The notes: a model not told the origin generated them from the letters alone. A DNA stretch of 32,000 nucleotides from Nostoc sp. PCC 7120 = FACHB-418 (GCF_000009705.1 NC_003272.1:2550001-2582000), one strand, 5' to 3'; counted from the first letter of the stretch, positions 1 to 11,441 are shown. Made by a program: numbers and translations.

Positions 1-961
1 TCCAAGACAGTGAATCTTGGACAATTTCCTGACGAAAATCTAACCAACCTTGCTCATTGCATAAAGCCAACAAATCATGAATTATTGTGTACCAAAGCAG
101 AGGTGTATCAGCACGTCCCTGAGCAAGAAACTGAGCAGCTTGTGTGAGAAAAGTAGTGATATCTTGCTCCACAAACGCGTGTTTGATGGAAAACCAAGCA
201 TAGGAACGTGAGTAGCGAGATTTGTCAGAGTGAACTGGTAACTGTAAATAATCTGCCGCAATTGTTAACAAATTAGCTGCTTGATTGCGGTCTTTATCTG
301 CCAAAATTAGGGCAACTTCACTGGTAATTTGGGCAAACATAGCAGAGACAAACTCAGGCGGCTGGCGTGCTATGCGTTCAAAACCCCAAGGATGGGGAGT
401 AGGTAAAGTCTGCAATTGTCCATCAAGATAGGCAAGAAGTTGAGCAGCAAGTGCGATCGCTCCTGTAAAATTTAATTGTCGTGCTTCTGTCCGCACCAAA
501 TTATGTAACAGTTGGATACGCTGCATCAGGAGAATATCATAACCATATTCTTCCTCTAAAACCGCACTTAATCTTAAAGCCTCTTCAGTGCGACTGTAAA
601 CTTGGTCAAAATCCTGATGACAATAATCGAGATAGGCTGCTGATTGCTCTAAAAATGACTGATGTAATAGCTTGGACTCCCGCGACAGTGTAGCCATTTG
701 CAAAGGCTTACGCGCTTCCTCAAATAACTGCGCGGCTGTTGTTAGTTGGCGGTGGCGAGCCGCTACCATCCCTTGACTACGAGCATTACTATAGCGACGC
801 AGTAATAATTGTTCTTGTAATGGTAAACGTTTCGCCATCAAAGCTTCTAGTTTTTCGCTAAATAAATCACCACTACCTGTGGGTAAATCCATAGTTGCAG
901 TACACCCCTGGCGATAACTTTCTGTGATTTGTGTTAGGAGTTGACTGGAAGTATCAAGCAT
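1..961 (-). CDS. Partial CDS (3' end lies outside the window): uncharacterised, probably all-helical protein, translationally coupled to the radical SAM gene
   Basis: It is absent from the ORF track because it has no stop codon in the window. My own minus-strand translation is open from ATG 961..959 to position 1 (MLDTSSQLLTQITESYRQGCTATMDLPTGSGDLFSEKLEALMAKRLPLQEQ...QEIVQDSLSW). The ATG overlaps the upstream gene's TGA (956..954) in the sequence ATGCTTGA. An alternative start is ATG 892..890. No family recognised. Confidence 0.6.
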   Translation of the reverse strand, partial: MLDTSSQLLTQITESYRQGCTATMDLPTGSGDLFSEKLEALMAKRLPLQEQLLLRRYSNARSQGMVAARHRQLTTAAQLFEEARKPLQMATLSRESKLLHQSFLEQSAAYLDYCHQDFDQVYSRTEEALRLSAVLEEEYGYDILLMQRIQLLHNLVRTEARQLNFTGAIALAAQLLAYLDGQLQTLPTPHPWGFERIARQPPEFVSAMFAQITSEVALILADKDRNQAANLLTIAADYLQLPVHSDKSRYSRSYAWFSIKHAFVEQDITTFLTQAAQFLAQGRADTPLLWYTIIHDLLALCNEQGWLDFRQEIVQDSLSW

Positions 962-2312
962 AAACTAAAGCCTCCTGGTTAGCTTCTGCTTCTTCAATCC
1001 GAGATAACGCATAGGTAAGTAATAAACGTTGCTCAATGTTATGTTTAGCACTGGGGCATGGTTCAATACCTTCTAACCAACTCTTTGGACAAGAACCACC
1101 GCAAACAGGTAACATAGGGCAAGTAGAACAGGGGTATGAACCTTGACGCACTTTATCATTAAAACTAGCTAAACGTTCCCTGTTACCAGGCATCTGTTTA
1201 CCTGATAAATGATCAATGGCATATTCATTAGGTGTGCCGTATGTAGGGACATAAGATACTTCTGTACAATTAAAAATATTGCCATAGGCATCAACTAATT
1301 CCGAATGGGGCATTACAGCCATACAAACTAGAGGTTTGCGCTCTGGTAATAACCCAACATTGAAACCTAACTCAACCATTTCCCCAAACCAAGTTATTTC
1401 CCAATTAGCAAATTCTTCTTTAGATAGGGAACGAGTATGAGCATCATTGCCCCAAGAATGAATTGGTGCTACATAAAAACTAATCTTGTCTTGTATCTCT
1501 ACCTCAGCTAACTTTTGTAGTAACAAAGAGACAGATTCATAATTTTGATAGTCAACATTACAACGAATATTAATTTGCACATCCAAATCTTGTCGATGAG
1601 CTAGGGCTGTAACATTAGCAAAAATTTTATCAAAAGTAGGTAAGCCATTTTTCTGCATCCGTCGAGCATCATGATATTCACCTACACCATCAAGAGTAAT
1701 TTCAATAGAATTTACGCCTAATTCTTGAACAATTTCTGTTGCTACTTGATGTGTTAGAGCTAAACCGTTGGTGACAATTTTTGCATGATAACTACAACCA
1801 AAACTGGCTGCAAGAGACTGTAGTTTTGGCGTGAGAGTTCTCATCACTGGCAACCCTACCAAAGGTTCTGCACCAAACCAACTAATTGAGAGACTACGAA
1901 AGTTCTTGCTTGCGAGTTTTTTAGCAGCCCGTTCTATAAATTTTTGCTGCTCATCTTCAGTCATCATTTTGCTAGTATGTTCTTGACCGCAGTAATGACA
2001 ACCTAGTTGACAAAAAGCTGTCGGTTGAATGACTAAATATAAATTATCGTCATCAATTGCCAAAGCATTATTATAATCTAAAATAGTCTGTAATTCGTTT
2101 TCTTCTTCAGGTACAATTAATTCAATATCAACGAGATCAAACAAAATATCTTGAGGTAATTGGTCAAAATCACCACTGGCTAAAATGTGCCAACTATGCT
2201 CATCAATAATTCTGACATCCGATGTTCGGCTAGAAAAAATAACCCGCTTTGTTTGTTGTTCAAGTTCATCAAAAAATGGTTGTGTAACTACATGATAATG
2301 TGAAAGTTTCAT
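954..2312 (-). CDS. Radical SAM enzyme with a C-terminal SPASM domain (peptide-modifying maturase type)
   Basis: 452-aa ORF. It carries the CX3CX2C radical SAM motif (CQLGCHYC). It also has a full SPASM cysteine pattern: CX13GX4C (CMAVMPHSELVDAYGNIFNC), CX2CX5CX3C (CSTCPMLPVCGGSC), and a trailing Cys (GIEPC). About 95 aa lie N-terminal to the core and could be a substrate-recognition domain. Confidence 0.9.
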   Translation of the reverse strand: MKLSHYHVVTQPFFDELEQQTKRVIFSSRTSDVRIIDEHSWHILASGDFDQLPQDILFDLVDIELIVPEEENELQTILDYNNALAIDDDNLYLVIQPTAFCQLGCHYCGQEHTSKMMTEDEQQKFIERAAKKLASKNFRSLSISWFGAEPLVGLPVMRTLTPKLQSLAASFGCSYHAKIVTNGLALTHQVATEIVQELGVNSIEITLDGVGEYHDARRMQKNGLPTFDKIFANVTALAHRQDLDVQINIRCNVDYQNYESVSLLLQKLAEVEIQDKISFYVAPIHSWGNDAHTRSLSKEEFANWEITWFGEMVELGFNVGLLPERKPLVCMAVMPHSELVDAYGNIFNCTEVSYVPTYGTPNEYAIDHLSGKQMPGNRERLASFNDKVRQGSYPCSTCPMLPVCGGSCPKSWLEGIEPCPSAKHNIEQRLLLTYALSRIEEAEANQEALVYA

Positions 2313-2356
2313 ATTTATAATCTCCCTGTAAAATAGACAAGAAAAAATAGTAAAAT

Positions 2357-2477
2357 AAGTTGCTAGTTATCAATTGAAGGATTGGTAATAGGTGATGGAT
2401 AATAGGTAATAATTTCGACTCAATTACCAGTTACCAATTACCAAATCCAGAAACCATATCTACATAACTAGCAACTT
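2357..2477. repeat. Nested inverted repeat (long hairpin) built partly from STRR-like heptamers, between the peptide gene and the rSAM gene
   Basis: The outer arms are a perfect 14-bp pair: aagttgctagttat (2357-2370) and ataactagcaactt (2464-2477). The inner arms are ttggtaat/aggtaat heptamers (2382-2410) facing attacca/gttacca/attaccaa (2423-2444). Confidence 0.7.
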
Positions 2478-2483
2478 GAGCAA

Positions 2484-2822
2484 TTACTTACGGATTTGAT
2501 CCTTAAAGATAGCTGGATTGGTAACTCTGCGTCCGTTATCAAGTAGGCGGCCACTGCAAGCTCCATCACAAACACCGTTATGTGCTGCTGCTCCACCAGG
2601 TTTTATAGTTCCTGGAAGTCTCTGTATAGAAGGAGTTAAATTATTAACTACTCCTGGACGAACTTTGACAGAATCAGTACTTAAATTAGCGCGGTTCAGT
2701 AAATTATCAACAGCACCAGGTTGGGGAGTTTGAGCATTAACGGCTGGATTTAAAGCTGCAATGCTTGTCATTGCAATCATGCTGAAAATGAACTTGATTT
2801 TGCTGGATTTTTGAGTAGACAT
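2484..2822 (-). CDS. Small secreted protein; candidate substrate or precursor of the adjacent rSAM/SPASM enzyme
   Basis: 112-aa ORF with a classical Sec signal: a Lys-rich n-region, the h-region FIFSMIAMTSIAAL, and the c-region AVNA|Q. The C-terminal part carries two Cys in HNGVCDGACSGRLLDNGRRV. It sits directly upstream of the maturase on the same strand. Confidence 0.65.
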   Translation of the reverse strand: MSTQKSSKIKFIFSMIAMTSIAALNPAVNAQTPQPGAVDNLLNRANLSTDSVKVRPGVVNNLTPSIQRLPGTIKPGGAAAHNGVCDGACSGRLLDNGRRVTNPAIFKDQIRK

Positions 2823-6100: not shown

Positions 6101-6469
6101 ATGTTAAAACTCACTTATACCGAAAATAGCGTTAGTTTAGATTATCTCGACGTACCTTTAGAAAATTGGGTAAATCAAAGAGTAAATTTGGCTCTTAGCA
6201 CTGGCACAAATATCTACATGGAACCCAGCACGGCGGCTTTTCTATTACCTATCGAATCATCCCCCTTAGCTGTTTTAGAGAAGTTAGCCCAAGCCAACTT
6301 GATAGATTTTTGTCCTTGTGATCCCTCATACTTTGAAGTTACTCTCCAAGGTATATACATAACGTCAACTGAAAACAGCGAAACAGGGGTCTTCGTCACA
6401 GATTTGATTTCATCTGTAGAATTATTACTCCAACAATTATCTCAAAGGCAGCAACTCTGCCACGCTTAG
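6101..6469 (+). CDS. Hypothetical protein (122 aa), first gene of the plus-strand locus
   Basis: Clean ATG ORF, divergent from the NACHT gene, ending 16 nt before the first structured RNA element. No motif recognised. Confidence 0.55.
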   Translation: MLKLTYTENSVSLDYLDVPLENWVNQRVNLALSTGTNIYMEPSTAAFLLPIESSPLAVLEKLAQANLIDFCPCDPSYFEVTLQGIYITSTENSETGVFVTDLISSVELLLQQLSQRQQLCHA

Positions 6470-6484
6470 TAATTCAGTCTTGCT

Positions 6485-6561
6485 GTTCGCGGGACTCTGG
6501 TATGACTTCCGAACCCAGTCTGTGAAACTGTCCTAGCTAGTCGTGTCGCCTTTCCCCGAAC
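6485..6561 (+). ncRNA. Structured RNA candidate 1 (Y-RNA-like terminal stem with a bulged C)
   Basis: 77 nt. The 5' GUUCG-C-GGGA pairs with the 3' UCCC-CGAAC, giving 9 bp with one bulged C. After an internal loop, GGUAUGACU (nt 15-23) pairs with AGUCGUGUC (nt 55-63). The apical hairpin is CAGU/ACUG with a 7-nt loop. The three G-U pairs would be C-A mismatches on the other strand, so transcription should be from the plus strand. Confidence 0.5.
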
Positions 6562-6573
6562 AGCACCCATAAC

Positions 6574-6614
6574 AATTCAAAATACCCTACGGGAAGCGCA
6601 AGCGCTACAAAATT
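6574..6614. repeat. Left arm of a ~40-bp inverted repeat
   Basis: aattcaaaataccctacgggaagc (6574-6597) is the perfect reverse complement of 6868-6891. The match continues imperfectly to gctacaaaatt (6604-6614), which pairs with 6853-6863. Confidence 0.75.
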
Positions 6615-6640
6615 CAAAATTTTTTAGCTTAAGTCTTAAT

Positions 6641-6717
6641 GTTCGCGGGACTTTGGTATGACTTCCGTTCCAACCTTTTAAGTTGTCTAACCTAGTCGTA
6701 CCGTTCTTTCCCCGAAC
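6641..6717 (+). ncRNA. Structured RNA candidate 2 (paralogue of candidate 1, 156 nt downstream)
   Basis: 77 nt with the same fold. The terminal stem is identical. In the second stem the partner is AGUCGUACC, where G-U pairs in copy 1 become G-C and U-A. The apical hairpin is CAAC/GUUG, which is two fully compensatory pair changes relative to CAGU/ACUG, and the loop is again 7 nt. Confidence 0.5.
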
Positions 6718-6757
6718 TTGATATAAAAGACTTCCAGATAAAAAAATATCCAAATTT

Positions 6758-6820
6758 TAGGGTGCGTCAGTATGAATAATTTCTTGGTACAGCTAGGTTT
6801 TTTCACACTGACGCACCCTA
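6758..6820. repeat. 14-bp perfect inverted repeat hairpin (dispersed-repeat type)
   Basis: tagggtgcgtcagt (6758-6771) faces actgacgcacccta (6807-6820), with a 35-nt spacer. Confidence 0.7.
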
Positions 6821-6852
6821 CTAACTACTACAAGCTTCCACTAATTTTCTTT

Positions 6853-6891
6853 AATTTTGTAGCTTTAGCTTCCCGTAGGGTATTTTGAATT
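6853..6891. repeat. Right arm of the ~40-bp inverted repeat
   Basis: aattttgtagc...gcttcccgtagggtattttgaatt is the reverse complement of 6574-6614. It overlaps the TTG start proposed by the ORF track for the next gene. Confidence 0.75.
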
Positions 6892-8372
6892 TTGAATTGG
6901 AGCGAAGCGACGTGACTAACCTCAATACAAACCGCGTTGAACAGGTAGCGCGAGAAGATTTAGTAATGTTTATTAATGCTTGTCTTGCTTGCACTGGACA
7001 AAAAGAATTTTATGATGATGCCTATGGTCAACGAGTATCAATTGACTTTTTACACGATTATATTCTGGGTAATTACCGTTTACTTTATGCCCGGACTTTA
7101 GCCGCAGGTATCAACCATTTCAACCAAGCCCAAATTATCTTAAAATTACTGGCGACAGGAAAAGACACAATCCCCGAACATCGCCAAGAAGAAGGCGCAC
7201 TGATTGCTCATGCACTCAACGCCTTACCTCCACAACGAGCTTGGGGCGTTTTACAACAGTTAAGACAACGTAAAATTAATAATAGACGAAGTAGAGCGAT
7301 CGCCCGCGATTATTTAAGTATGCGGCGTGATATGAGTTTTGATGCTGTTAAGTATCGCGCAAAAGTGAGAGCGATCGCTACCCACGCCCACCTGAAACTA
7401 CAAGGTGAATTGGGTACTTTCCTTTTCCACAACTGGAAGCAAAAGTCTTACTCCACTGAGTTATTTGAACAGTTTCGCCAAGCACATTACAGCGCCGAAG
7501 CCATTTACAATTTGCCTTTTACCATCGCCGAAGGATTTGCAGTTAAACACAAAGTCCCCCGCGATGTCTTCTTATCCCGGATTCAACAGCAAATGACTTT
7601 AGGCGAAAAGCTGCGTTTGCAAGGTGCGGCGGAACGTAACGAAACTGATATCAATATAGATTTTGGTCGTCTTCCCTTAACCAAGTTGGCGTTATATATC
7701 TTGTCTTTACCTTGGGATATACGACAACAACAAAGAGATATTTTACATCAAGCCTTAGAGCGATCGGCACATCTAGCGTTAAAAAAAGCGCCCTTAAAAC
7801 TAGGAAAGGTTGCAGCCGTCTTGGATTGCAGTTATTCCAGTTCCGGCTCTAGTGAAAAGCGCCGCCGTCCCTTGGGTATAGCTATGGCTGCACACTACTT
7901 ATTACAAGCCGCCGCGCAAGAATATCAAGCTTTTTGGACAGTACCCGTAGAAGATTCACTGCAAGTAAACGCCCGTGGACAAACAGACTTAGCCACACCA
8001 CTGTTAGCCGCTTTGGGAACAGGAGCCGAGTTAATCATAATTATTTCCGACGGTTGCGAAAATGACCCACCCAATGGAGCTGCTGAAGTCCTACGCATCT
8101 ACCGGACTAAATTAGATCCCAGAGGGCAAACTTCTATCATTCATTGCAACCCTGTATTCAACTCCGATGACTTTTCCCTACGCACCCTCAGCCCAGCCGT
8201 CCCTACCGTAGGACTAAGAGACGCAGAAGATTTACCAACGATGCTCAACTTTGCTCGTTTTGCTGAAGGTTCTGCACCTTTATCAGAACTAGAAACATAT
8301 CTAGCACAACGAGTAGAGCAATTTTTAACAGCATCTTCTTTAACTGGCACATCTTTTCGTGTTGGCTGTTGA
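6885..8372 (+). CDS. Protein with Ro60-like architecture: ~300-aa helical (TROVE-like?) domain + C-terminal vWA domain
   Basis: 495-aa ORF. A MIDAS-type DxSxS motif is present (VAAVLDCSYSSSGS), followed by a hydrophobic strand plus acidic motif (LIIIISDGCEND), as in vWA folds. The N-terminal segment LVMFINACLACTGQKEFYDD resembles the RFLxLG..GTxYY region of bacterial Rsr. The true start is probably downstream of the inverted repeat, at GTG 6912 (GGAG 10 nt upstream) or ATG 6963. The TROVE assignment is by eye only. Confidence 0.75.
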   Translation: MNFELERSDVTNLNTNRVEQVAREDLVMFINACLACTGQKEFYDDAYGQRVSIDFLHDYILGNYRLLYARTLAAGINHFNQAQIILKLLATGKDTIPEHRQEEGALIAHALNALPPQRAWGVLQQLRQRKINNRRSRAIARDYLSMRRDMSFDAVKYRAKVRAIATHAHLKLQGELGTFLFHNWKQKSYSTELFEQFRQAHYSAEAIYNLPFTIAEGFAVKHKVPRDVFLSRIQQQMTLGEKLRLQGAAERNETDINIDFGRLPLTKLALYILSLPWDIRQQQRDILHQALERSAHLALKKAPLKLGKVAAVLDCSYSSSGSSEKRRRPLGIAMAAHYLLQAAAQEYQAFWTVPVEDSLQVNARGQTDLATPLLAALGTGAELIIIISDGCENDPPNGAAEVLRIYRTKLDPRGQTSIIHCNPVFNSDDFSLRTLSPAVPTVGLRDAEDLPTMLNFARFAEGSAPLSELETYLAQRVEQFLTASSLTGTSFRVGC

Positions 8373-8408
8373 CGGTTGACTGTTAACCGTTAACAGTCAA
8401 CCGTCAAC
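8368..8408. repeat. 41-bp near-perfect palindrome made of STRR3-like heptamers, overlapping the stop codon
   Basis: gttgacggttgactgttaac (8368-8387), then c, then gttaacagtcaaccgtcaac (8389-8408). This gives 20-bp perfect arms built from the heptad units GACGGTT/GACTGTT/AACAGTC/AACCGTC. There is no T-tract after it. Confidence 0.8.
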
Positions 8409-8470
8409 TGTTAACAAATCATACAAATGACTATGTATTTTAAAAGCGTAATCGCTGAATAAAAATTGCT

Positions 8471-9649
8471 ATGTCAAAAACTAAAAGTTTATTAACAGAT
8501 ATATCACTCAAAGGATTGGAAATTGCGCCTTCTCAAATACGTGGTGCAGTACGTATTGTGCCATTGTTGCGGCGAGAAGTGCGGGGTGATTTGCGTTTGC
8601 TGCGTCGTTCTTACGATGAAGATATTGCGGTGGTTTCCCTGGAGGGTCAAATAAGCAAACCGGGGATGAAATACTTCTCTTATGTCCCTCATGGCTTAGT
8701 CATGTCTTGGAGTGATGACGGTAGTCCAGTAGCCAGCTTTGGCGGACAGATGCTCAAGCCTGAGGGTAAAAGTTTTAATTCCTGTTGTGCAAGTGTGCGG
8801 TTAATGCACCGCATGGCGAAACGAGAATCAAGGAATCAACTGAGATTTTTACCTTTGCACTTAGCAATGGAAGGTTTCCTTTCGCTGTTTTTTTCAGGCC
8901 CAGATATTGCTTGGAGTGAATATTCTAAGTATGCTTTGTCTCACGGACTGGGTTCACGCTACGAATCATCTTTTAGTGGGCGTTACATTGCTGGGTTAGA
9001 AGATGCTTTACGGGTGTTTGAGATTCACGAAAGACAAGTTGGTGTATTGGTATTTGTCGCTGAAGCTTTAGCCTCTGCTTTTGTCGTTCCCACACCTGAA
9101 GACTACCGCGCTCTGCACACCAGTCTTTTAGAAGACTTTTATGGTGAACTAATTTACGAGTACAGCTTGATGTATGGTGCAACTTTTCCAATGGCTACAT
9201 CTGTAGATGATGCCCAGATTAATAGTTTGACAGATTTAAGTGGAGCGATCGCCCAAATGCGATCAGATTGGGCTACATTCCAAGGATTCATGGCGGAAGG
9301 ATTGCTACAGCGCCAACTCCAATCCCAGAGAGTGTACACGGCTGGACAATTCCAACTGCAACGGTTCATTACTAATCTGCAACCTAAAGAAGAAAACCAT
9401 ATCGGTGAGGCGATTATTCGAGATAACGGAGAGTTAGAATATCTCAAAACTTACCGTCTATCAGCCGCCCAAACCCGTCGCGTGTACTTACTCAGCCAAC
9501 TAGCCGAATATAACTGGAATATTGATGCTACAGCCAAAGCCTTGGGACACACCCGCGATGAACTAGTTTCTCGCCTCGAAGCTTCAGGTTTTGGTTATCT
9601 ACTCAATCAACAAGTACGCGACGCAGCACGGAAAAAAGCGAAAAGGTGA
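8471..9649 (+). CDS. Uncharacterised 392-aa protein with a C-terminal Fis-type helix-turn-helix
   Basis: ATG ORF 98 nt after the vWA gene on the same strand. The C-terminus YNWNIDATAKALGHTRDELVSRLEASGFGY matches the pattern of Fis/NtrC-family HTH tails (NWN..AA..LG..R..L.RKL...G). The first ~330 aa were not recognised. Confidence 0.75.
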   Translation: MSKTKSLLTDISLKGLEIAPSQIRGAVRIVPLLRREVRGDLRLLRRSYDEDIAVVSLEGQISKPGMKYFSYVPHGLVMSWSDDGSPVASFGGQMLKPEGKSFNSCCASVRLMHRMAKRESRNQLRFLPLHLAMEGFLSLFFSGPDIAWSEYSKYALSHGLGSRYESSFSGRYIAGLEDALRVFEIHERQVGVLVFVAEALASAFVVPTPEDYRALHTSLLEDFYGELIYEYSLMYGATFPMATSVDDAQINSLTDLSGAIAQMRSDWATFQGFMAEGLLQRQLQSQRVYTAGQFQLQRFITNLQPKEENHIGEAIIRDNGELEYLKTYRLSAAQTRRVYLLSQLAEYNWNIDATAKALGHTRDELVSRLEASGFGYLLNQQVRDAARKKAKR

Positions 9650-9897: not shown

Positions 9898-10287
<390 letters not shown>

Positions 10288-10328
10288 TCAAGGGAGGGTC
10301 GACAGAACGCGACCGTAACCCCTCTAGA

Positions 10329-11441
10329 TTAGCGGCCGCCTATCGCCTGGGCGAGACCGAGGAAGAGCGGTATTGCCAAGCCAATGGCAATGGGTGTACC
10401 GATAGCTGTGGAGGCACCGATGTAGGCGGAGGGATTGGCCGACGGAATTCCGGCTCGCAACGTGGGTGGACCTGAGATGTCTGAACTGGAGGCGGCGATG
10501 ACGGCCAGGATCACAACACCGCCCAGGCTGAATCCCGTGGCGTAGTGGGCAATCATGCCGAGACCGAAGGCGATGAACCCATGCACCAACGGTGCCACTA
10601 CGCTATACACAACGTACCACTGGGCTACCTTCCGTAGTTCGCCAATCCTTGACCAAGCCTCCATACCCATAACCAGCATCAAGATCGAAAGCAAGCCTCG
10701 GAAGAGGGGGTCGTAGAAGCTTTTATAGACACTTTCCGGCTGGGTGAACAGGCCAAGAGCAATGCCGAGCAACATTGCCGATAGGGCAGGGCCCTGGAGG
10801 CTTTCCTTGACGATCGGCCATATTTTGACCCGATTATCAGCAGACTGCTGCTTGCGGAGATACTCTTGCCGACTGCTGGGATAATCCTGCTGATCGGGAT
10901 ACTCGCCTGCTGCAACACTCTGCTTGCTGAGATACTCGCCTGCTGCACTACGCTTCTTCTTGTTGAGATAAATGTTGGCCACCACAATCGCCGTTACGAG
11001 CGCGGGGATATCCATGAAGGGATAGAGTGCGGCTGCCCATGCCTCGTATTGGATTTTTTGTTCTTCCAGTAGCGTCAGGGCGGCAGCCATGGTAGAGCCA
11101 CTCACAGCACCAAACAACCCCCCGGTCGCAATCGCATCTACGGTGTTGACCTTCGGCAGCTTGGCCAAGGTATAGCGCGCGATGAATACAACAAGAACCC
11201 CTACTGCTACAGCAGACGCTGCGGGTAACACCATCTCTGTCAGGTTGGAATTGCGGATCGCAATACCACCGGTCAGACCGATTTTGGTGAGCAACATGAA
11301 GACGATGATCTGACAAATCGCCTCTGGAATTATCAATTCGCTACCGAGAGCGGCAATGACCATACCACCAATCAAAAACCCAAGTGTTGGGGACTGCAAC
11401 TGCTTAACGAAGTCCATTAAGAACAAGGAAAAAAAATCCAT
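10329..11441 (-). CDS. sbtA: Sodium-dependent bicarbonate transporter SbtA
   Basis: 370-aa polytopic membrane ORF with two homologous halves separated by a hydrophilic loop. The N-terminus is MDFF..FVKQLQSPTLGFLIGGM. The GGAGG ribosome-binding site is 7 nt upstream, and the gene pairs with sbtB. Confidence 0.9.
   Translation of the reverse strand: MDFFSLFLMDFVKQLQSPTLGFLIGGMVIAALGSELIIPEAICQIIVFMLLTKIGLTGGIAIRNSNLTEMVLPAASAVAVGVLVVFIARYTLAKLPKVNTVDAIATGGLFGAVSGSTMAAALTLLEEQKIQYEAWAAALYPFMDIPALVTAIVVANIYLNKKKRSAAGEYLSKQSVAAGEYPDQQDYPSSRQEYLRKQQSADNRVKIWPIVKESLQGPALSAMLLGIALGLFTQPESVYKSFYDPLFRGLLSILMLVMGMEAWSRIGELRKVAQWYVVYSVVAPLVHGFIAFGLGMIAHYATGFSLGGVVILAVIAASSSDISGPPTLRAGIPSANPSAYIGASTAIGTPIAIGLAIPLFLGLAQAIGGR

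Follow-up and report, generated by a model that had tools for sequence, protein, structure and literature searches.

Particles of the Ro60 protein and Y RNAs are found from bacteria to humans and represent a major autoantigen, and coupling of Y RNAs to effectors is known for very few systems. Salmonella Y RNAs lie in an rsr-Y RNA-rtcBA operon, which provides a precedent for an RNA co-transcribed with a Ro gene. Three described ribonucleoprotein (RNP) systems were taken as reference: Rsr-Yrn1-PNPase of D. radiodurans, rsr-yrlBA-rtcBA of Salmonella and mycobacteriophage Ro-YrlA. Bacterial Y RNAs are encoded within 4 kb of rsr on the same strand, and Ro-binding motifs located near the 5' end of Y RNAs read GGUCCGA in vertebrates and GNCGAAN0-1G in bacteria (PMC4201824). 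Here we describe a locus from Nostoc sp. PCC 7120 = FACHB-418 (Anabaena PCC 7120) that resembles these systems and departs from them in composition. It lies in a 32,000-nt stretch (NC_003272.1:2550001-2582000), hereafter the window, and is built around a hairpin RNA and two open reading frames (ORFs), ORF1 and ORF2. We think it reasonably probable that the locus is a Ro60/Y-RNA-type RNP module of composition not described before, with a new RNA family and a new partner.

An initial annotation of this DNA proposed two co-directional ORFs, the first of them Ro60-like. ORF scan returns both on the same strand, at 6885-8372 (495 aa from TTG) and 8471-9649 (392 aa), and both are conserved. ORF1 has 1120 homologues at E <= 1e-3, which form 581 clusters at 50% identity; it is thus not a chance ORF. 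Direct searches with its sequence retrieved nothing from Pfam, NCBIfam, PADLOC, PHROGs or PDB, and its homology to Ro60 becomes visible only by fold search and profile-profile comparison.

The AlphaFold model of ORF1, based on 45 sequences (mean pLDDT 88.8, pTM 0.86), is all-helical to about residue 292 and continues with alternating beta and alpha elements in vWA style, in accord with the proposed 300 helical residues followed by a vWA domain. When the model was compared with PDB by Foldseek, its seven best matches were all human or Xenopus Ro60 (probability 1.0, E 6e-7 to 1e-5), the only full-length ones obtained. The alignments extend over 500-550 columns, with template modelling (TM) scores of 0.48-0.56 and identity of about 13-15%. 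The first match other than Ro60 has an E-value of 0.045, which leaves a 4000-fold gap. In BFVD, which holds viral models, a phage "Ro-like RNA binding protein" ranks first (TM 0.59), ahead of proteins annotated as TROVE or vWA.

Profile comparison leads to the same family. Four phage Ro proteins that pass both the Pfam TROVE and vWA_Ro60 models made up the Ro60 comparison set (A5); their genes were fished with a human Ro60 sequence, and only the retrieved, Pfam-verified phage proteins serve as evidence. Using hhalign, the ORF1 family (A1) matches this set with 93.5% probability (E 2.3e-7) over 278 columns, ORF1 residues 124-409 being aligned to Ro residues 149-511. The alignment pairs FDAVKYR...HAH of ORF1 with YQAVKYRQRNGWTHRDLLRLAHP of Ro60, and likewise the DxSxS and GxTD motifs and the SDG/TDN strand. 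ORF1 contains ...VAAVLDCSYSSSGS... and ...IIIISDGCENDP..., which include the motifs LDCSYSSSGS and ISDGCEND. Conservation of the motifs was read from the 28-member alignment A1 (identities down to 24%; residues are numbered in the 486-aa form of the protein). The metal ion-dependent adhesion site (MIDAS) includes the invariant residues D305, S307, S309 and D380 and a nearly invariant one, G356 of the GxT motif. K147, Y148, H160 and P202 are likewise invariant or nearly so in the helical part, where K147-Y148...H160 constitutes an invariant motif. Predicted fold and profile comparison identify ORF1 as a remote homologue of Ro60/Rsr, in which a TROVE domain of helical repeats is followed by a vWA domain with intact MIDAS. 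Since this relationship is detectable and yet the protein fails the curated TROVE and vWA_Ro60 models, we place ORF1 on a deep branch rather than among ordinary Rsr proteins, as the initial annotation had anticipated. In comparison with Ro60, ORF1 falls below the Pfam thresholds, is only about 13-15% identical and is about 50 residues shorter. Other viral and cellular proteins of TROVE/vWA type, among them phage TROVE proteins and the DUF2828 family, share the two-domain layout and appear among weaker Foldseek matches, being structurally less similar to ORF1 than Ro60 is. We know of no ARPP-2 partner (see below) for these proteins.

The likeness to Ro60 might also be generic, with ORF1 being a vWA protein with a helical N-terminus that acts as a peptide-binding chaperone for ORF2 and has no role in RNA binding. 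In ARG/ARPP systems the vWA domain is described as a Mg2+-dependent peptide-binding module (PMC9503650), and a chaperone of this kind would account for the missing Pfam TROVE match and the modest TM-scores. However, Foldseek aligns the whole of ORF1 with Ro60 and with nothing else at significance, and the profile match covers the most conserved TROVE motif (VKYR...H), not the vWA domain alone. Moreover, the covarying RNA conserved beside ORF1 across phyla would be left unexplained. We therefore regard a pure chaperone as very improbable.

ORF1 probably starts at GTG 6912 and not, as initially proposed, at TTG 6885. This is indicated by the deposited protein of Anabaena sp. FACHB-709 and related assemblies (100% identical, 486 aa, GTG 6912 start), by orthologues, most of which begin to align only at residues 10-20, and by the location of position 6885 inside an inverted-repeat arm. 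The family is found in many cyanobacterial orders, across which sequence conservation is 65-97%, in Myxococcota (Archangium, Melittangium, Vitiosangium), in Planctomycetota and in one metagenome-assembled genome (MAG) of Armatimonadota. Some orthologues bear the UniRef label "TROVE domain-containing". Ten distant family members were also considered as a bridge to Pfam TROVE; this was rejected, because none of the ten matches TROVE or vWA_Ro60 at E <= 0.01. The sole phage match to the family, weak and partial, is an unannotated stretch of an uncultured 462-kb jumbo phage (LR756500.1, 104921-105379), which is 25% identical to ORF1 residues 10-159 (E 2e-7).

The second component is a structured RNA. 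Between orf122, an accessory gene, and ORF1 lie two repeats of about 90% similarity that fold as long hairpins, the second one 156 nt downstream of the first. The minimum free energy (MFE) is -32.4 kcal/mol (z -4.2) for copy 1 and -28.9 kcal/mol (z -5.5) for copy 2. The two RNAs postulated at this locus are both copies of the same covarying hairpin, with scores of 107.8 and 89.4 bits, respectively, in covariance model R1. Type B RNA, represented here by copy 2, occurs in other Nostocales loci as well. In an alignment of 47 copies (A3), compensatory double changes are seen in 16 of 26 consensus pairs, and paired cells make up 95.2% of the total, against 84.4% after shuffling. The covariation score of 0.419 compares with 0.219 for shuffled alignments, none of 500 reaching it, and with 0.06-0.15 for slid partners.

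The RNA forms an unbranched hairpin of about 85 nt. A covarying 9-bp basal stem with one bulged base (C in 83 and U in 24 of 107 copies) leads to an invariant GGGA/UCCC helix, beyond which follow an asymmetric internal loop, a 9-bp helix, a loop with invariant UUCCG and a freely covarying apical hairpin. The UUCCG sequence, extended to UUCCGAA in 72% of the 107 copies, occupies the internal loop after the second helix. An intrinsic terminator was considered and rejected, as the stem is not followed by a U-tract.

The hairpin accompanies ORF1. Of 47 genome loci with upstream sequence, nhmmer located it in 44, in each case upstream of ORF1 and on its strand, and it is present in 47 of 51 metagenome loci reached through ORF2. 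The covariance model places it upstream of ORF1 also in Archangium, in two Planctomycetota and in an unassigned metagenome contig, with compensated stems. The structure of the hairpin is conserved and covaries, and the RNA stays with ORF1 in different phyla. Among 70 non-redundant loci, one copy occurs in 42, two in 22, three in 2 and none in 4. The RNA lies from about 20 nt to about 1 kb upstream of ORF1, either before or after orf122. Such variation in number and position fits a separable RNA unit. On one metagenome contig (L134, 3943-4011) the RNA directly precedes ORF2 and there is no ORF1. A pattern scan of IMG/VR gave 28 matches, none of which was confirmed by the covariance model.

We consider the hairpin a likely cognate "Y-like" RNA of ORF1. 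As with Y RNAs, a small structured RNA is encoded next to the protein gene and on its strand, a long stem with a bulged nucleotide joins the 5' and 3' ends of the RNA, it sometimes occurs in several diverged copies, and gene and RNA are probably co-transcribed. In contrast to Y RNAs and YrlA, it has no Rfam match, is unbranched, is devoid of the tRNA-like domain of YrlA and carries no evident GNCGAAN0-1G or GGUCCGA at the expected place. Its position upstream of the gene is also unlike known Ro systems, as are the invariant ARPP-2 partner and the lack of RtcB, RtcA and RtcR genes nearby.

Further, we examined how the RNA might be transcribed. In 36 of 81 first or only copies, the GYGGGACU anchor is preceded by a -10-like hexamer whose end lies 13-17 nt away, compared with 16 and 10 in control windows; the TG-extended form precedes 14 of 81 first copies and at most one in controls. 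Relative to the basal stem, the hexamer ends 5-7 nt before the first base, and in the window no terminator-like site was found between RNA and ORF1. This placement, together with the lack of an intervening terminator, suggests that in compact loci the transcript would start at the first base of the RNA stem and continue into ORF1 and ORF2.

The same arrangement would be expected of a cis-regulatory 5' leader, through which ORF1 or ORF2 would bind its own mRNA and exert feedback on translation or stability; ORF2 would then be mainly a ligand-sensing transcription factor, and no stable trans-acting RNP would exist. The RNA is on the ORF1 strand, usually within about 100 nt upstream, the -10-like boxes would put RNA and genes on one transcript uninterrupted by a terminator-like site in the window, and ORF2 ends in an NtrC/Fis-like helix bundle. 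On the other hand, 24 of 70 loci have two or three tandem copies of two diverged types, and a distance to ORF1 of up to about 1 kb, in some loci with orf122 in between, is unusual for a leader acting on a ribosome-binding site. Co-transcription as such does not set a leader apart, for accepted bacterial Y RNAs are, to our knowledge, as a rule co-transcribed with rsr. A leader without RNP is thus disfavoured, and we hold it to be unlikely; a leader function is at the same time compatible with a Y-like RNA, and the two are not mutually exclusive.

ORF2, initially thought to be unrecognisable apart from its C-terminus, belongs to a defined family. Its residues 11-292 match Pfam PF22549 (ARPP-2) at E 3e-117 and 391 bits (cut-off 27), covering the model from 1 to 278 of 278, and the match recurs in all 39 orthologues tested. 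ARPP-2 is uncharacterised and is the sole family found, so that no well-characterised family of unrelated role claims the protein. The sister family ARPP-1 (PF20208) gives a weak match at residues 164-224, again in 39 of 39 orthologues (19 bits, cut-off 27). Among 114 relatives at 46-98% identity, 23 residues are invariant over the full length of ORF2, many of them polar or charged. These include Q22, R28, R125, R181, E184, Q189, D211, H216 and D222 in the ARPP-2 domain and E313 and Gln334 outside it. No PDB sequence relatives and no phage homologue of ORF2 were found.

The expected Fis/NtrC-type helix-turn-helix (HTH) at the very C-terminus of ORF2 is the best match to its tail and is predicted as confident helices, although below threshold. 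Pfam HTH_8 reaches 14 bits (E 0.042, cut-off 22), and 5 of 39 orthologues attain E <= 0.1; a profile of the tail matches best the DNA-binding domains of the NtrC family (NtrC4; 3e7l and 4fth, E 0.05) in PDB. AlphaFold is confident about ORF2 only in this tail, where blocks of ten residues have pLDDT of 77-91, the last one 70. The whole model, based on 39 close orthologues, has a pLDDT of 47, and the Foldseek result obtained with it was discarded as meaningless. Scans with Pfam and NCBIfam detected neither a CARF nor an AAA+ sigma-54 activator domain, as had been stated for the latter. With RtcR (CARF-AAA+-HTH), the activator of rsr-Y RNA-rtcBA, ORF2 may share a C-terminal HTH of Fis/NtrC type beside a Ro-family gene. 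RtcR differs in having CARF and AAA+ sigma-54 interaction domains and in being divergently transcribed, whereas the ORF2 gene follows that of the Ro-like protein, in many loci with translational coupling between the two.

ARPP is an uncharacterised domain of ARG-centred NAD+/ADP-ribose conflict systems, for which an action on sugar moieties through conserved Cys and Gln residues was predicted (Iyer, Burroughs, Anantharaman & Aravind 2022, PMC9503650). The neighbours given there are HIRAN, WYL and deacetylase genes; TROVE proteins are not mentioned. ORF2 resembles this family in belonging to the sister family ARPP-2, in its weak ARPP-1 match and in its vWA-protein neighbour, common to both contexts. 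It differs in that no ARG, rhodanese-phosphatase, Nudix, HIRAN, WYL or deacetylase neighbour recurs, in having no conserved Cys, in its additional beta-rich segment and HTH-like tail, and in its linkage to a TROVE protein and an RNA.

The trio is conserved as a unit. ORF2 follows ORF1 in every genome locus with downstream sequence, and in the reverse search ORF1 lies upstream of ORF2 in 49 of 52 metagenome loci with enough upstream DNA, so the proposed conservation of the neighbourhood holds. Both genes overlap in 21 of 84 non-redundant loci and are at most 20 nt apart in 17 more (38 of 84 together). RNA, ORF1 and ORF2 co-occur with identical order and strand in Cyanobacteria, Myxococcota, Planctomycetota and an Armatimonadota MAG, a patchy distribution. 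Four loci outside cyanobacteria were looked up; the pair is kept in them and the flanks are unrelated. Clustering of ORFs from 131 loci yielded as genuine recurring families ORF2 (131), ORF1 (106), orf122 (39) and a NACHT gene (26). Other recurring clusters appear to be shadow ORFs, as coordinates of their representatives overlap ORF1 or ORF2 on the opposite strand. Neither RtcB, RtcA nor any other non-accessory gene recurs in the 131 loci, and no RtcB or RtcA gene is near the pair in the window, which bears out the claimed absence of Rtc genes. Since only RNA, ORF1 and ORF2 recur beyond cyanobacterial accessories, these three form the core unit. The larger five-component module proposed at first, with orf122 and two RNAs, stands only in part: RNA, ORF1 and ORF2 are conserved, but orf122 occurs in 27 of 48 genome loci and two or three RNA copies in 24 of 70 loci. 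Two cyanobacterial MAG contigs (L059, L078) carry an ARPP-2 gene with neither ORF1 nor RNA within 4 kb; in one of them, from Desmonostoc vinosum (L059), an ORF1 orthologue is on a different contig, judging by protein names.

The biochemical role of the module, including the terms RNP and RNA surveillance, is what we infer from these associations. ORF1 may bind the RNA through the invariant bulged GYGGGACU/UCCC junction and the UUCCG loop. The RNA would arise as the 5' portion of the operon transcript, from which trimming would probably release a stable species protected by protein. As ORF1 and ORF2 are often translationally coupled, a stoichiometric complex is probable, in which ORF2 would be the obligatory partner, perhaps docking at the MIDAS of the vWA domain. 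The number of invariant polar residues in ORF2 points to an enzyme or ligand-binding domain, whose targets, by analogy with the prediction published for ARPP, may be ribose, ADP-ribose or nucleotide moieties, such as those at RNA ends captured by the ring. The HTH-like tail would bind nucleic acid, either an operator in autoregulation or RNA. The module as a whole might capture, process or survey damaged, misfolded or foreign RNA, with the Y-like RNA gating the ring or tethering it to ARPP-2, and ARPP-2 replacing PNPase or Rtc enzymes. More tentatively, the locus could exemplify a second widespread class of bacterial Ro60-like RNPs: a deeply divergent TROVE-vWA ring with its own family of unbranched "Y-like" hairpins of about 85 nt, with no sequence kinship to Y RNA or YrlA, and an obligatory ARPP-2 enzyme that would perform new RNA-end or ribose chemistry on ring-captured RNAs in place of PNPase/Rtc.

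Several observations weigh against a Ro60/Y-RNA-type module. The search proposed for ORF1, with Pfam TROVE (PF05731) and vWA_Ro60 (PF25045), gives no match even at E <= 1, and the ORF1-family profile finds no Ro60 among PDB sequences. About 120 N-terminal residues of ORF1 are outside the hhalign match, and TM-scores to Ro60 are only about 0.5. Membership of the RNA in a known family, the Y RNA models of Rfam included, was rejected by three Rfam scans (at gathering thresholds; at E <= 10 on 4.5 kb; at E <= 10 with lax filters on 436 nt) and by ARAGORN, which detected no tRNA-like element and hence no T/D-arm module of YrlA type. Its sole likeness to the Ro-binding motif is UCCGA, which is found in an internal loop instead of the terminal stem's 5' strand. 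Often just tens of nucleotides, and no terminator, separate the RNA from ORF1, so the RNA could simply be a cis-acting leader. ORF1 and ORF2 occur without an RNA match in Nostoc sp. 106C (L009), Aulosira sp. ZfuVER01 (L011) and Nostoc sp. T09 (L041); in the first, the covariance-model filters were off and the search took in all 13 kb of the locus (±6 kb), and the other two were searched with default filters only. These three loci are devoid of orf122 and the NACHT gene as well, and their RNA may be encoded at another site of these genomes or lost. As to ORF2, no cysteine is conserved among its 114 relatives, while the published ARPP mechanism rests on one, the probable HTH is sub-threshold, and the low pLDDT of its ARPP-2 fold makes an enzymatic nature conjectural.

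The NACHT gene raises the question of a role in conflict. Coding for an EAD4-NACHT-HEAT-NCC-H protein, it is divergent from orf122 and adjoins the module in 20 of 48 genome loci while other flanks differ. Possibly it is a neighbour restricted to a lineage and does not belong to the module. The trio could alternatively be a conflict or anti-phage system, with the Ro-like RNP as sensor of foreign or damaged RNA and ARPP-2 as effector or signal processor, wired to the NACHT NTPase in Nostocales. NACHT proteins protect bacteria from phage (bioRxiv 10.1101/2022.07.19.500537), the Archangium copy has Tox-REase-5/Imm52 cassettes and an HNH gene as neighbours, the definition of ARPP comes from predicted conflict systems, and the spread across phyla is patchy. 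Against this, PADLOC-DB 2.0 models give no match to ORF1, ORF2 or orf122 at E <= 1, and the conservation across cyanobacterial orders (65-97%) is high, unlike that of fast-diverging defence genes. Beyond Nostocales no defence gene recurs beside the module, orf122 is not an EAD4 adaptor of the NACHT protein, and neither a phage homologue of ORF2 nor an RNA copy in viral contigs was found. The NACHT and toxin-cassette neighbours make a role in conflict or defence plausible; as an account of the trio we rate it as rather doubtful, and it overlaps with the Ro60-type RNP that we prefer.

Part of this locus is already flagged in databases, namely some ORF1 orthologues by the UniRef TROVE label and ORF2 by the Pfam ARPP-2 family. 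The RNA, which is outside every Rfam family, and the RNA-ORF1-ORF2 trio appear to be new. Search of a literature library retrieved no paper that connects ARPP with TROVE/Ro60 or describes the hairpin RNA or the trio, none that ties Y RNA/Ro60 to Anabaena, Nostoc or myxobacteria, and none that mentions the presumed locus tags beside all2133/all2134. Chen et al. (2014) found few YrlA RNAs beside TROVE-annotated genes in cyanobacteria and delta-proteobacteria (PMC4201824). As the same groups host the ORF1 family and some of its members bear the TROVE label, this scarcity fits ORF1-type proteins using a different RNA, and the module may account for it. The module is compact and has three parts: a Ro60-like protein missed by standard domain models, a new covarying RNA and an uncharacterised partner family. 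If our reading is true, the known range of Ro-type RNPs is broadened and catalogues gain a new RNA family; on the more tentative reading of a second class of Ro60-like RNPs, ARPP-2, a family without known function, would also gain an RNA substrate context. The host, Anabaena PCC 7120, is genetically tractable, and the module offers a direct experimental handle on the ARPP superfamily.

Coordinates of all features are collected in Table 1.

Table 1. Features of the locus, in positions of the window
Feature	Position	Strand	Basis
EAD4-NACHT-HEAT-NCC-H STAND NTPase gene, 975 aa	3022..5949	-	Pfam domains
orf122, Alr0857 family	6101..6469	+	NCBIfam NF045647 (E 9e-42); Pfam PF28246
Structured RNA copy 1, type A, loop motif UUCCGAAC	6481..6565	+	MFE, z, covariance model
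Structured RNA copy 2, type B, loop motif UUCCGUUC	6636..6721	+	MFE, z, covariance model, direct repeat
ORF1, Ro60-like protein, 486 aa from GTG	6912..8372	+	fold search, profile-profile match
ORF1 TROVE-like all-helical region, residues 1-292	6912..7787	+	secondary structure of model, invariant columns
ORF1 vWA domain, complete MIDAS	7794..8277	+	invariant columns, model, alignment with Ro60 vWA
D305xS307xS309 of ORF1 MIDAS	7824-7838	+	with GxT (residues 356-358) and D380
ORF2, ARPP-2 protein with HTH-like tail, 392 aa, ATG start	8471..9649	+	
ORF2 ARPP-2 domain, residues 11-292	8501..9346	+	Pfam PF22549
ORF2 tail of three or four helices (predicted), residues 332-391	9464..9643	+	probable Fis/NtrC-type HTH

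The gene orf122 is an insertion or accessory gene seen in cyanobacteria only. All 27 genome loci that contain it are cyanobacterial; it is always on the plus strand upstream of ORF1, and in some loci it sits between RNA and ORF1. No PDB relatives of its product were found. Its paralogue alr0857, the namesake of the family, has an HNH endonuclease gene next to it, and its expression is derepressed when trcR is mutated and rises under translational stress (PMC10272220). EAD4 is regarded as recruiting an effector that bears the same domain, and no EAD4 partner is evident beside the NACHT gene; orf122 as stand-alone EAD4 adaptor of the NACHT protein was rejected at an hhalign probability of 0.2%. 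Upstream of the NACHT gene (window 1-2822, L001 1-5911) are a radical-SAM gene, several hypotheticals and a gene for a 1683-aa Peptidase_C14 (caspase-like)-nSTAND1-WD40 protein. Given the latter and its NACHT neighbour, the upstream region is rich in STAND-type conflict genes. In Archangium primigenium (L053, 341-5744) two Tox-REase-5/Imm52 toxin-immunity cassettes immediately precede the module and an HNH_2 gene lies near it, so that the surroundings have the look of a conflict island.

On the other side of the module, a convergent pair coding for SbtB (PII-like) and the SbtA bicarbonate transporter occupies 9898-11441 on the minus strand. We take it to be all2133/all2134 of Anabaena PCC 7120, tags that are in use in published papers; it stands beside the module in no other species' locus.

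Several repeats are found in and around the module. A 30-nt inverted repeat and an adjacent 14-nt one (about 44 nt together, 6574-6617 and 6850-6891) bracket RNA copy 2 and a separate 22-bp hairpin at 6758-6820. They were considered as a conserved outer helix, which was rejected, for 8 other loci do not conserve them; a different 21-nt inverted repeat occupies the same relative position in locus L020. The spacer between ORF1 and ORF2 is filled by a 57-nt near-perfect palindrome (8360-8416) of GTTGACT/GTTAACA-type heptamers, which resemble the STRR repeats of heterocystous cyanobacteria. Tandem GTTGACT heptamers are also located upstream of the RNA in the Nostocales loci L018, L021, L032 and L035. 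The palindrome probably explains why ORF1 and ORF2 are separated by 98 nt here, whereas they overlap in other phyla.

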